A DNA stretch of 64,000 bases from Escherichia coli O157:H7 (GTDB lineage: Bacteria > Pseudomonadota > Gammaproteobacteria > Enterobacterales > Enterobacteriaceae). Shown here in pieces: positions 11,734 through 52,843 of the stretch (positions are counted from its first letter, which is position 1; each line of letters starts with the position of its first letter). The notes below the pieces were generated by a model. The model searched no databases. It was not told where the DNA came from and saw only the letters and a program-made list of their open reading frames with translations. The position numbers were made by a program, and so were the translations under genes. The stretch lies in NCBI GenBank assembly GCA_013403045.1, contig GCA_013403045.1_3037.1. One strand, written 5' to 3'.

Positions 11734-13242
11734 TTATAAATTAACTGTTTTCATTACGTAATTAAATTTTTCATCTGCGTAGCGCTGAATACGATCAATG
11801 CCGTGTTTTAAAAGATAGTTCAAATGAACATATTTCTTTTTCGTATTAGCAGATTTTGGCTTAACACCACAATCATCTATGAGGTCCCAGACTGTTGCTA
11901 TTGTCTTAGAACCATGCTTACGTAATACACGACCGATTGTTTGTAATACAATGATTTTTGATTTAACACCGTGCGCTAAAACAACGTGATGCAGATTTTT
12001 AACTGAAATACCAGTAGAAAATACACCATAACTAGCTACTATAATTATTCCTTTACCATTTTCAGCTAAGGTTTTCATTATATTGCGGGTTTCGGTATCA
12101 ACTTCCCCTGATACGTAATAAACTTTATCGTATTCATTTTTAATTAAATCGAAAATAGCTTTACCATGTGATACATGTTTAAACATGACAAAAGCGTTTT
12201 CATCTTTTTGCGCAAGCTTAATAGCTAATTTAGCGATCCATTTATTTCTTTTACTAAGCCCAGTAATAATTTTTATTTCTTCTTGATAAGTTTTTCCCTT
12301 TAATTTAGTAGTGAACTCATCGGGATAGCGAAGAAAAATACTATTAATTTTTAGCTCAGTTACTTGCCCATCTTCCATTAATTTAGAAGTCGTTACTGGC
12401 TTAAATATTTCACCAAACAATCCAACATACTGCATGATATTGGCTTTGCCATCACGTAATGAACCTGATAGACCAAATTTAAACATACAGTTATTTAAAC
12501 CAGATATGATAGATGAAATACTTTTTCCTGTAGCAAGATGGCATTCATCATTCATCATCATTCCAAACTGTGAGAACCATTCTTTTGGTTGTTTAACTAC
12601 AGTTTGCCATGTACCAACAACGACTGGTGCATCATTTTTATATTTATCATCTTTTGATGCTCCTCCGCCAATTTTCTTTATCATTGCATGACTGAATAAA
12701 CGATAGTCAACGAAGTCATCAGCCATCTGAGTTGTCAGAGCAGTTGTTGGAACAATGATAAGAATTTTACCTTCATAATTTTCCAAATAATACCGAGCAA
12801 GCAGAGCTTGAATTAACGATTTACCAGCGGATGTTGGAAGATTAAGAATTCTACGACGATTAACTAATCCTTCGAACACTGCATCTTTTTGATACCAGTG
12901 TGGTTCAATTCTTTTATTTCCTGAATAGATTTCTAATTTAGAAAGCCATTCATCAAAATCTTTTCTTGATAATTCTTCTTTTTCATTAATTTGTGGGTCA
13001 ATCCAGGCTTTATAGCCAAAGTTATCACAGAACTTTTTAATTTGCCCGACTAAGCCGAATGGAAGAAGACGATTATAATCTAAAAGACGGATTCGTCCAT
13101 CCCAGTTGCCATATCTGAAGCGAGGGTTAAATCTATATCCATCGGCCTCAAACGAAAAGAAATCTCTTAATTCGTGGAACGTGCTCTCTTCACAATCGAT
13201 GCGTACATGACTGAAGTCGTGAAAATGTACTTTAATATCCAT
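11734..13242 (-). CDS. uvsW: UvsW RNA-DNA / DNA helicase
   Basis: 502 aa, matches T4 UvsW length; helicase motifs (GKS, DECH). Confidence 0.9.
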   Translation of the reverse strand: MDIKVHFHDFSHVRIDCEESTFHELRDFFSFEADGYRFNPRFRYGNWDGRIRLLDYNRLLPFGLVGQIKKFCDNFGYKAWIDPQINEKEELSRKDFDEWLSKLEIYSGNKRIEPHWYQKDAVFEGLVNRRRILNLPTSAGKSLIQALLARYYLENYEGKILIIVPTTALTTQMADDFVDYRLFSHAMIKKIGGGASKDDKYKNDAPVVVGTWQTVVKQPKEWFSQFGMMMNDECHLATGKSISSIISGLNNCMFKFGLSGSLRDGKANIMQYVGLFGEIFKPVTTSKLMEDGQVTELKINSIFLRYPDEFTTKLKGKTYQEEIKIITGLSKRNKWIAKLAIKLAQKDENAFVMFKHVSHGKAIFDLIKNEYDKVYYVSGEVDTETRNIMKTLAENGKGIIIVASYGVFSTGISVKNLHHVVLAHGVKSKIIVLQTIGRVLRKHGSKTIATVWDLIDDCGVKPKSANTKKKYVHLNYLLKHGIDRIQRYADEKFNYVMKTVNL

Positions 13243-13244
13243 AA

Positions 13245-13862
13245 TTATGCCTTACTAAATTTGCCTTTAGAATCTCTTTTCATGAGACGACCTTTAATAA
13301 ATCCGTCGGGAATAATACCGTCTGGTTGTATTAATTTATTTATTGCGCCATTATTGACCCAAAAAGTTCCTGTGGTAGTCGGTTTGACTTTACATCCTTT
13401 TCTGGACTTTCTATTAGGATGAACCATCCCTTTTACAAATCCTTCTGGAACAAGTTCTCCAGGTTTAATAAAAATATTTTTAGTTCCATTAGTGTAACAA
13501 GTTTTACCTAATACCGTGCCTGGTGAGTTTTCAAATCTTTTAGCGGAAGATTCTTTCATCTTTGCTATAACCTCTGTAGTCATAACAATTCCACCAATTC
13601 CACCAGGTTTCATATTATAATAATTTTTGCTTTTTATTAGTTCAGGAGTTATAATTTCTTCTTCATACATGTACGCTTCTTCGGAAGTTTTAAACTCTTT
13701 TAGTATTGTTCTAGAGAAATTGTTTTCACCATATTTCTTTATAGCCTGCTGAATTGCCTTACCGGAACCAAGGTAACCATCATTCAAGTCATCAGTAGAG
13801 TGTTTTCCTATATACTTTTTACCATTTATTAGATTTGTTGTTTCATATACAAAGTGGTACAT
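13245..13862 (-). CDS. segE: GIY-YIG homing endonuclease SegE-like
   Basis: N-terminal GIY-YIG module (YIGKH ... Y ... E); sits between uvsW and inh as segE does in T4. Confidence 0.8.
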   Translation of the reverse strand: MYHFVYETTNLINGKKYIGKHSTDDLNDGYLGSGKAIQQAIKKYGENNFSRTILKEFKTSEEAYMYEEEIITPELIKSKNYYNMKPGGIGGIVMTTEVIAKMKESSAKRFENSPGTVLGKTCYTNGTKNIFIKPGELVPEGFVKGMVHPNRKSRKGCKVKPTTTGTFWVNNGAINKLIQPDGIIPDGFIKGRLMKRDSKGKFSKA

Positions 13863-13911
13863 ACTATTTTCCGAGTAATAAATATATCTATATTTATACT
13901 GAGGAAATATT

Positions 13912-14592
13912 ATGATAGATAAAGATTATATTGCAGAGCTGAAGGCTCTTGATGATAACAAAGAAGCTAAAGCTAAATTAGCTGAATATGCTGAACAGTT
14001 TGGTATAAAGGTCAAAAAGAATAAATCTTTTGATAATATCGTTGTTGATATTGAAGAAGCCCTCCAGAAGCTCGCTAGTGAACCTATGCCAGAGACTGAT
14101 GGGTTATCTATTAAAGACTTAATTGATGCTGCTGATGCTGCAGAGGGATTAAAATATGACGATGAAGAAGTTAATCCAGAAGCAGCACTTCTGATTGATT
14201 CTCCAGTTAAATCTGATATTAAAATTGAAGTGGTAGAAACGGATAAAATTCCTGAAAATACTGATGTTTTGATTGAAGACACTCCTTTTGTTGAAGAAAA
14301 GTTTGAACAAGCTGTAGATAAGATTATTGAATCTGAAAAGCCGTCTGTATTTACTCTTCCGGAAAACTTTAGCCCGAATCTTCAGCTGATTGGAAAAAAT
14401 CCAGGATTCTGCACTGTTCCTTGGTGGATTTATCAATGGATTGCTGAAACTCCGGATTGGAAATCTCACCCAACTAGTTTTGAGCATGCGTCAGCACACC
14501 AAACTTTATTTAGCTTAATTTATTACATTAATCGCGATGGATCAGTTTTAATTCGTGAAACACGCAACTCTTCTTTCGTAACATTAAAATAA
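13912..14592 (+). CDS. inh: Inh, inhibitor of prohead protease
   Basis: 226 aa; synteny and length match T4 Inh. Confidence 0.85.
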   Translation: MIDKDYIAELKALDDNKEAKAKLAEYAEQFGIKVKKNKSFDNIVVDIEEALQKLASEPMPETDGLSIKDLIDAADAAEGLKYDDEEVNPEAALLIDSPVKSDIKIEVVETDKIPENTDVLIEDTPFVEEKFEQAVDKIIESEKPSVFTLPENFSPNLQLIGKNPGFCTVPWWIYQWIAETPDWKSHPTSFEHASAHQTLFSLIYYINRDGSVLIRETRNSSFVTLK

Positions 14593-14601
14593 GGATAACT
14601 T

Positions 14602-16026
14602 ATGGCTTTTACAGTTGATATAACTCCTAAAACACCGACAGGGGTTATTGATGAAACCAAGCAGTTTACTGCTGCACCCAGTGGTCAAACTGAAGGTGGA
14701 ACTATTACCTATGCTTGGAGTGTAGATAATGTTCCACAGGATGGAGCTGAAGCAACTTTTAGTTATGTACTAAAAGGACCTGCCGGTCAAAAGACTATTA
14801 AAGTCGTTGCAACAAATACAGTTCCAGAATCTGAATCTGAACCTGAAACAGCAGAAGATACGACAACTATCACAGTTCAAAATAAGACACAGACTACTAC
14901 AATAACAGTAACTCCTGATAGTCCTTCGGAAGGAGTAATCGGAACAGCTGTTCAATTTACCGCTGCCTTAGATTCACAGCCGCCAGGTGCATCTGCTACG
15001 TATCAATGACACGTCGACGGTTCTCCTGTGGGAGAAGCAACTGACGCTACATTTAACTATACTCCTGCCACAAGCGGAGTTAAAAAAATTAAGTGTGTAG
15101 CTCAAGTAACTGCGACAGATTATGATACAAAGACCGTTACTTCTGACGAAGTGTCGCTGACTGTTAACAAGAAAACCCAAGCGACTACTTTAGTTGTAAC
15201 TCCTAATAGTCCTTCAGCTGGAGTAATTGGAACTCCAGTTCAATTTACTGCTGCCTTAGCTTCTCAACCTGATGGAGCGTCTGCTACATATAAGTGGTAT
15301 GTAGATGATTCTCAAATTGGTGGAGAAACTAACTCTACATTTAACTATACTCCAACTACAAGTGGAGTAAAAAGAATTAAATGTGTAGCGCAAGTAACTG
15401 CAGAAAATTACAATGAAAAGGAAGTTACTTCTAATGAAGTATCATTGACAGTTAATAAGAAGACAATGAATCCACAGGTTACATTGACTCCTCCTTCTAT
15501 TAACGTTCAGCAAGATGCTTCGGCTACATTTACGGCTAATGTTACTGGAGCACCTGAAGCAGCACAAATTACTTATTCATGGAAGAAAGATTCTTCTCCT
15601 GTAGAAGGGTCAACTAACGTATACACCGTTGACACCTCATCTATTGGAAGTCAAACTATTGAAGTTACTGCTGTCGTTACAGCAACCGACTATGATAGTA
15701 AAACAGTTAAAACAACAGGTCAAGTTCAGGTAACTGATAAAGTTGCTCCGGAACCAGAAGGTGAATTGCCTTATGTTCATCCTCTTCCACATCGTACTTC
15801 AGCTTATATCTGGTGCGGTTGGTGGGTTATGGATGAAATCCAAAAAATGACTGAAGAAGGTAAAGATTGGAAAACTGAAGATCCAGATAGTAAGTACTAC
15901 TTGCATCGTTATACGCTTCAGAAGATGATGAAAGATTATTCAGAAGTTGATGTTCAAGAATCACGTAATGGATACATCATCCATAAAACTGCTTTAGAAA
16001 CTGGTATCATCTATACTTATCCATAA
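14602..16026 (+). CDS. hoc: Hoc outer capsid protein with Ig-like repeats, interrupted by an in-frame TGA at 15007-15009 (possible pseudogene or leaky opal)
   Basis: N-terminus MAFTVDITPKTPTGVIDETKQFTA and C-terminus ...HKTALETGIIYTYP match T4 Hoc. The two track ORFs (14602-15009 and 15028-16026) are in the same frame, separated by one TGA. Confidence 0.8.
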
Positions 16027-16030
16027 TCGA

Positions 16031-16058
16031 AAGGGGCTTCGGCCCCTTTCTTCATTTT
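16031..16058 (+). terminator. rho-independent terminator after hoc (UUCG tetraloop)
   Basis: AAGGGGC-TTCG-GCCCCTT followed by TCTTCATTTT. Confidence 0.7.
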
Positions 16059-16115
16059 GAAAGCACACAAAACACAATCAGAAAATGATGTATATAATGG
16101 CACCAACTCGATAAC

Positions 16116-16331
16116 ATGAGATTGATTATGAGAACTGAAGTTGTGGTGTTTACACTTCATGAGTCTGGAAAGTCATTCATTGAAATTGCTCGTGAATTAA
16201 ACTTACAGGCGAAAGAAGTGGCTGTATTATGGGCTCGAGCTATGACTGCAAAGAATAAATTTGAGACTCGAGAAAAAGTTGTCTATAGAAAAAGACACAT
16301 TAATAAAAAGGTGAAAAATGGAACAGTATGA
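16116..16331 (+). CDS. hypothetical protein (24.3-like)
   Basis: 71-aa ORF at the T4 24.3 position. Confidence 0.55.
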   Translation: MRLIMRTEVVVFTLHESGKSFIEIARELNLQAKEVAVLWARAMTAKNKFETREKVVYRKRHINKKVKNGTV

Positions 16332-52746: not shown

Positions 52747-52843
52747 GAATTATTTGTTATTATTAACTCATACCGCACTGATTAATACCCTCTATCATCA
52801 GAGAAAGTCCAATAGGCAGAACAGGAGATTGGATTCTTTTAAT

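Follow-up and report, generated by a model that had tools for sequence, protein, structure and literature searches.

Hoc, the highly immunogenic outer capsid protein, forms a monomeric fibre in which a string of Ig-like domains precedes a C-terminal domain that binds in the middle of each gp23 hexamer. It takes part in phage adherence to mucus and cell surfaces and serves as the principal scaffold for display on T4 capsids, so that both phage therapy and vaccine display have a stake in how many Ig domains it has and of which type. In PMC10385173, T4 Hoc was described as a 180-Angstrom fibre, present at 155 copies per capsid, whose three Ig-like domains stand on a conserved capsid-binding domain. 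The same source described the capsid-binding role of the C-terminal domain, reported homologues with anywhere from 1 to 10 Ig domains in a row and stated that Hoc is non-essential in the laboratory. Moreover, Hoc was shown to bind fucosylated mucin glycans (PMC9271167), and residues S183-L184-T185 in domain 2 of PhiPNJ-9 Hoc were reported in PMC11853027 to be needed for MUC2 (fucose) binding. A variable Ig-domain count in Hoc has therefore a published precedent, and the 474-aa Hoc was also known beforehand, being annotated in the AR1 (BAI83192.1) and wV7 records.

The hoc gene considered here lies in a stretch of 64,000 bases (the window). A megablast search with window positions 14400-16200 retrieved phage AR1 (AP011113.1) as a 99.9% identity match, together with about 690 further Tequatrovirus-type records of lower identity. 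The base-by-base comparison revealed that the window corresponds to the reverse complement of AR1, with AR1 position 122756 matching window position 1, and that exactly two differences separate them: a G>A substitution at 15009 and a 6,062-bp deletion at 52800|52801. The hoc genes themselves (AP011113.1 106731-108155 in AR1) differ by one base. The gene is preceded by segE (13245-13862, minus strand) and inh (13912-14592) and followed by 24.3, 24.2 and rnlB, and the order segE/inh/hoc/24.3/24.2/rnlB/gene 24 found in the window ORFs matched the AR1, wV7 and T4 annotations. The features of the locus are the following:

14602..16026, plus strand: hoc (highly immunogenic outer capsid protein), translated as 474 codons followed by TAA, codon 136 being an in-frame TGA
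14591..14595, plus strand: Shine-Dalgarno-like AAGGA, 6 nt 5' of the hoc ATG and overlapping the inh stop, read from the sequence
14602..14889, plus strand: Ig-like domain 1 with an acidic linker (aa 1-96), scoring 39.5 bits with the module HMM
14827..14847, plus strand: GAATCT hexanucleotide run (3.5 units) encoding the PESESEPE linker from domain 1 to copy A
14890..15177, plus strand: copy A, Ig-like domain 2 (aa 97-192), of m1 type, without a T4 Hoc counterpart
15007..15009, plus strand: TGA in place of TGG at Trp136, the invariant Ig core Trp, within copy A; the sole substitution relative to AR1 in the window
15178..15465, plus strand: copy B, Ig-like domain 3 (aa 193-288), of m2 type, the closer of the two copies to domain 2 of T4 Hoc
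15466..15744, plus strand: Ig-like domain 4 (aa 289-381), orthologous to domain 3 of T4 Hoc, from Pfam Ig_3/I-set at aa 291-358 and collinear alignment
15745..16023, plus strand: C-terminal capsid-binding domain (aa 382-474), with few differences from residues 284-376 of T4 Hoc
16029..16050, plus strand: GC-rich hairpin followed by a T-run, terminator-like, just 3' of hoc, from a consensus scan alone

Our reading, to which a probability of about 0.88 is given, is that AR1 hoc carries the T4-type second Ig module twice in tandem, yielding a 474-aa protein of four Ig domains plus anchor, and that the window holds a nonsense allele of this gene. Concerning its transcription, the T4 late-promoter TATAAATA was absent from the plus strand at 13001-16100, sigma-70-like matches were no commoner than in shuffles, and a hoc promoter was not located. 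A 47-aa ORF at 16017-16160 on the minus strand, antisense to the hoc 3' end and the terminator, is annotated in AR1 as AR1_183 with 'no match to nr', and is probably a spurious gene call. At the other end of the stretch, at about 1-2730, two adjacent full-length paralogues of alt (RNA polymerase ADP-ribosyltransferase) stand in tandem according to the AR1 annotation (AR1 120030-124148).

The original prediction had proposed an extra Ig-like domain in Hoc, arising from a diverged tandem duplication at 14880-15480, and this interval correctly brackets copies A and B. A repeat search returned two ungapped 288-nt copies (14872-15159 and 15160-15447, spacing 288) with 74% identity, and Tandem Repeats Finder reported 14908-15461 with a period of 288, 1.9 copies, 77% matches, 0% indels and a score of 679. 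When cut at the domain boundaries, copies A and B shared 75% of DNA and 72% of protein positions, so that over the different cuts the pairwise alignment established homology at both the DNA (74-75%) and the protein (71-72%) level, without indels. The period equals 96 codons in the hoc frame, and the copies are adjacent, head-to-tail and of equal length. The shared pattern noticed beforehand (P..GVIGT.VQFTAAL, GASATY, TFNYTP.TSGVK.IKCVAQVTA and SLTVNKKT) was found entire in both copies, the joined ORF, expected to be of about 474 aa, was translated as 474 codons, and the stop codon assigned to the first copy does fall within copy A (TGA 15007-15009, codon 136). That the likeness of the two segments is due to chance or low-complexity composition, without homology, was rejected as having practically no probability: 1000 shuffles of copy A gave 26% +/- 2.5% identity with a maximum of 34%, against 74% over 288 ungapped nt, the Tandem Repeats Finder score is high, and the Ig fold is common to both copies. 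Identity between the copies was 79%, 88% and 56% at codon positions 1, 2 and 3, respectively, and the greater divergence of the third positions, which also speaks against chance, indicates a coding sequence held by selection.

The Ig-like nature of the modules was approached by profile, domain and structure comparisons. A module HMM scored copies A and B at 186 and 195 (194.7) bits, close to the 191 bits of the single T4 copy, and it found the flanking Ig domains D1 and D3 more weakly (30-40 bits), so that all four Ig units are related. In Pfam, the best stretch of PKD lay on copy B (aa 197-269), with a whole-protein score of 38.6 for a cutoff of 23.5; copy A had matches only to Ig_2 (whole-protein score 24.9, cutoff 27) and to BiPBP_C (29.9, cutoff 26.8, over a short stretch of 39 residues). 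The predicted Ig identity of copy A thus comes from its homology to copy B and from a structure model, which was that of P0009, a homologue of 472 aa with 94% identity to AR1 Hoc, predicted with AlphaFold2 from an alignment of 44 sequences. This model showed a row of four beta-sandwich domains at a pLDDT of around 90, strands of the first spanning residues 4-91, followed by a less confident C-terminal alpha/beta domain. A Foldseek search with it retrieved four-Ig fragments of Dscam and ICAM-5, NCAM, and RB49 Hoc (3shs, E = 1.9e-10), and a Y-x-W motif was present in all four Ig domains. The module HMM, the P0009 model and the multi-Ig Foldseek matches together bear out that the repeats are homologous Ig-like modules, and the domain and structure prediction proposed as a check gave the four expected beta-sandwiches in a homologue of 94% identity.

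T4 hoc (NC_000866 110187-111317; NP_049793) has 1131 nt and encodes 376 aa with one module. In a PDB sequence search, T4 Hoc (5vf3 and others) aligned with residues 1-109 and 195-474 of the query, leaving copy A unpaired; the segment 195-474 matched T4 Hoc 97-376 with 555 bits, and the last 95 residues were nearly identical. The alignment also placed in the window gene a capsid-binding domain homologous to T4 Hoc residues from about 281 to 376, and T4 Hoc 284-376 is present in the capsid structures 5vf3 and 8t1x. The first 210 nt of AR1 hoc are 95% identical to T4, and copy B shares 87-88% of nucleotides and 84% of amino acids with the T4 module. The linker between D1 and D2 reads PESESEPE in AR1, LSEGGPE in T4 and PEADPE in P0009; the AR1 run explains the 2-aa gap between the 474-aa and 472-aa forms, most two-module Hoc proteins being of 472 aa. 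The expectation that T4 Hoc has one module fewer was upheld by both the module HMM and the alignment (one copy in T4, two here), and the two outcomes that would have contradicted the prediction, a copy A of non-Ig nature and a T4 Hoc with two modules, were examined and excluded. The word 'extra' holds only with respect to T4, and fails as the description of an event in AR1, since the two-module form occurs in hundreds of Tequatrovirus genomes.

The distribution of module numbers was verified in a set of 120 Hoc cluster representatives, drawn from a search of about 5.8 billion proteins, plus AR1 and T4. The cluster representatives fell into discrete length classes, and in the whole set the module HMM found 82 proteins with one module (361-378 aa), 31 with two (468-474 aa) and nine with three (567-570 aa). 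Similarly, a phage genome collection yielded 913 module matches over 637 records, and an evenly spaced sample of 60 of these rows contained 36 with one match, 20 with two, three with three and a single one with four. Two-copy hoc is present in roughly one third of the deposited genomes, so the two-module form is a common state and no peculiarity of AR1. Larger arrays were observed in T4_ev151 hoc (LR597660.1 107088-108794; 568 aa, three D2-type modules, five Ig-like domains), which is not T4's own allele, and in slur08 hoc (LN881733.1 57613-59607; 664 aa, four D2-type modules, six Ig-like domains); in both, the motif MNPQV reads MNPRV. A series of one to four D2 modules within Tequatrovirus is not described in the available parts of PMC11853027 and PMC10385173. 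The series and its positional lineages are nevertheless unsurprising, as they follow from deposited annotations, and they open no new question; the value of the survey lies in displaying a single 96-residue module in one to four tandem copies among T4's closest relatives, with position-specific lineages.

These lineages were recognized by characteristic residues, with m1-type modules carrying GTAV.F, VDGSPV.EAT.ATF, GVKKIKC and TATDYDALSV, and m2-type modules GTPVQF, VDDSQVGGETNSTF, GVKRIKC and ENYNEKEV. Mean identity was 87% among the first modules of two- and three-module proteins and 83% among the second modules, for 75-78% between modules within one protein. Both AR1 copies have positional orthologues in many phages and are not the product of a recent lineage-specific duplication. 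Divergence at synonymous sites agrees with an old origin: dS between copies A and B was 0.91-0.96 (dN/dS 0.18-0.21), and dS between AR1 and T4 was 0.15 for domain 1, 0.33 for copy B against the T4 module, and 0.44 for domain 3 plus anchor. With about 0.9 between the copies and 0.15-0.44 in the flanks, the copies are older than the split of AR1 and T4 elsewhere in hoc, and represent an old polymorphism and no AR1 event. In copy A, dN/dS was 0.21 against the CAM-21 orthologue and 0.16 against that of PP01, and in copy B the corresponding values were 0.06 and 0.13; both copies are under purifying selection. Moreover, no near-identical adjacent modules were found among the seven hoc genes compared by DNA, in which within-gene identities, including those of the T4_ev151 modules and of two slur08 modules, were 74-85%; recent duplication in situ was accordingly not observed. 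We conclude, on sequence comparison, that the hoc module locus is an old, recombining and mosaic array.

The direction of change can be read in more than one way. The multi-module array might be ancestral and the T4-type single-module Hoc a secondary loss, in which case AR1 would carry no 'extra' domain at all; this has a considerable probability, somewhat below an even chance. It accords with the age of the copies, far greater than the divergence of AR1 and T4 in domain 1 and in domain 3 with the C-terminal domain, and with the occurrence of single-module proteins in both lineages (56 of m1 type, 21 of m2 type), which suggests several independent origins. What tells against it is that single-module genes are the majority class and that the T4 module is of m2 type over its first 72 residues (70/72) and of m1 type over its last 24 (24/24), the reverse of the m1-head/m2-tail product that one unequal crossover deleting a tandem copy would leave from an m1-m2 array. 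Otherwise, copy A might have been gained laterally from the hoc of another phage, by module shuffling between co-infecting T-even phages and with no duplication in the lineage itself, a proposal that we regard as rather unlikely. The mosaic character of hoc, with domain 1 at 95% and copy B at 87-88% identity to T4, would suit such a gain, as would the position of copy A as an outlier that clusters apart from most m1-type modules, its DNA identity of only 77-80% to any other compared module, its own orthologues aside, and its faster or more mixed divergence among close relatives (dS 0.29-0.48 versus 0.08-0.25 for copy B). The CAM-21 and PP01 orthologues of copy A, however, occupy the same position with 85-89% identity, which fits vertical descent with faster change equally. 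As the modules are mosaic, a loss in the T4 lineage is as possible as a gain in the AR1 lineage.

The second component of our reading, the nonsense allele, depends on the substitution at 15009, where the window has A and both AR1 and wV7 have G. The affected Trp occupies module position 40 and was present in 171 of 171 modules. With this in-frame TGA, the frame that should run through the Ig string and the anchor is interrupted in the window gene, which is a hoc allele by descent and a nonsense allele here. The G-to-A change, converting Trp136 (TGG) into TGA, would leave an N-terminal fragment of 135 residues; as this product would have no capsid anchor, Hoc-less capsids would be expected. The extra domain is thus probably not displayed in a phage with the window sequence, which is probably a Hoc-minus derivative of AR1. 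Since this is the sole substitution in 64 kb, the inactivation of hoc would be very recent, or else an error or edit. In-frame restart codons are available 3' of the TGA (GTG 15028, GTG 15151, TTG 15445, ATG 15466 and TTG 15484); none of these five starts has a convincing Shine-Dalgarno upstream, which makes it less likely, though conceivable, that re-initiation supplies an N-truncated Hoc with its anchor. A reading of TGA as a Trp codon was rejected, as TGA closes five other long ORFs and the window carries no tRNA gene.

The second difference from AR1 is the absence of AR1 63895-69956 (6,062 bp) at 52800|52801. The missing stretch contained all ten tRNA genes, segD, e.3-e.8 and part of ar1_129, and ARAGORN detected no tRNA genes within the 64-kb window. 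No microhomology was found at the junction, and not one of 519 related phage records spans it. The window would come either from an AR1 deletion derivative absent from collections or from an altered sequence.

The stop codon itself admits two other interpretations. It could be an artefact that arose in sequencing or assembly, or through editing of the AR1 sequence, the phage making a normal four-Ig Hoc; we give this an appreciable chance, below an even one. It would account for a sole substitution in 64 kb relative to AP011113.1, and it is in keeping with the 6062-bp deletion, whose lack of microhomology and of any matching junction points to an unusual derivative or an altered sequence. The exact truncated product of 135 aa also has no record in public assemblies. 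In IMG/VR neither the mutant nor the wild-type 26-mer around the stop had an exact match, so that these scans carry no information on the point. On the other hand, a simple transition turns TGG into TGA, a change of the same kind as those in the classical T4 nonsense mutants, the loss of a non-essential protein is tolerated, and the sequence bears no error mark within itself. It is far less credible that the TGA is a functional read-through site setting the ratio of a low amount of full-length Hoc to the free 135-residue fragment. Decoding by tRNA-Trp would give back exactly the wild-type residue and could yield a small amount of full-length wild-type Hoc, and the stop stands in the context UGA-C, which is said to have been described as a weak terminator by Poole et al. 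in 1995. UGA_C was also the weaker terminator in eukaryotic reporters in PMC9841425, which cites Poole et al. 1995. Nevertheless, the stop is not conserved, with Trp in the AR1 reference, in wV7 and in all the modules surveyed, and there was no sign of a stimulatory structure.

As for how the two-module organization arises and what it may confer, module copy number would change through unequal homologous recombination or exchange among phages that infect the same cell, as the mosaic modules suggest. An added module would lengthen the fibre of roughly 180 Angstrom by one Ig unit, about 4-5 nm, and would supply a second copy of the domain 2 surface, including the SLT motif; both AR1 copies retain ...EVSLTVNKKT. 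A bolder proposal, in which the D2-module array is a recombination-driven copy-number locus (1-4) for the quick retuning of fibre length and glycan valency, complemented by a leaky, Trp-restoring opal codon that lowers Hoc display without abolishing it, is considered improbable.

Compared with described systems, the closest is the Hoc of AR1 itself (BAI83192.1), the same gene, with the difference that the reference is intact, with 474 aa and TGG at codon 136 where the window has TGA. T4 Hoc (5vf3, 8t1x and 8t9r) occupies the same locus with the same neighbours, its domain 2 is a module of the same kind as copies A and B, and the two phages are collinear, with 89-95% DNA identity, in domain 1, in the last Ig domain and in the capsid-binding domain. 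The two proteins differ in that T4 has one D2-type module, with three Ig domains plus anchor, whereas AR1 has two, with four Ig domains plus anchor and a D1-D2 linker 2 aa longer. The three- and four-module Hoc proteins of Tequatrovirus (UGKSEcP2, 570 aa; T4_ev151, 568 aa; slur08, 664 aa) share the same 96-residue tandem module and the same flanks, and their first and second modules correspond to AR1 copies A and B as positional orthologues; unlike AR1, they carry one or two more modules, including an 'm3' type (VDGSLVDGETTTTF ... GAKTVKC). More distantly, the N-terminal Ig domains of RB49 Hoc, found by Foldseek as 3shs, form a linear Ig string as in AR1-like Hoc, but with about 14% identity over the Foldseek alignment and with three Ig domains, none of which is a recent duplicate of another. 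Finally, PMC11853027 and PMC10385173 give two Ig domains for PhiPNJ-9 Hoc and ten for that of Serratia phage Muldoon, in both cases with modules that differ from those of AR1.
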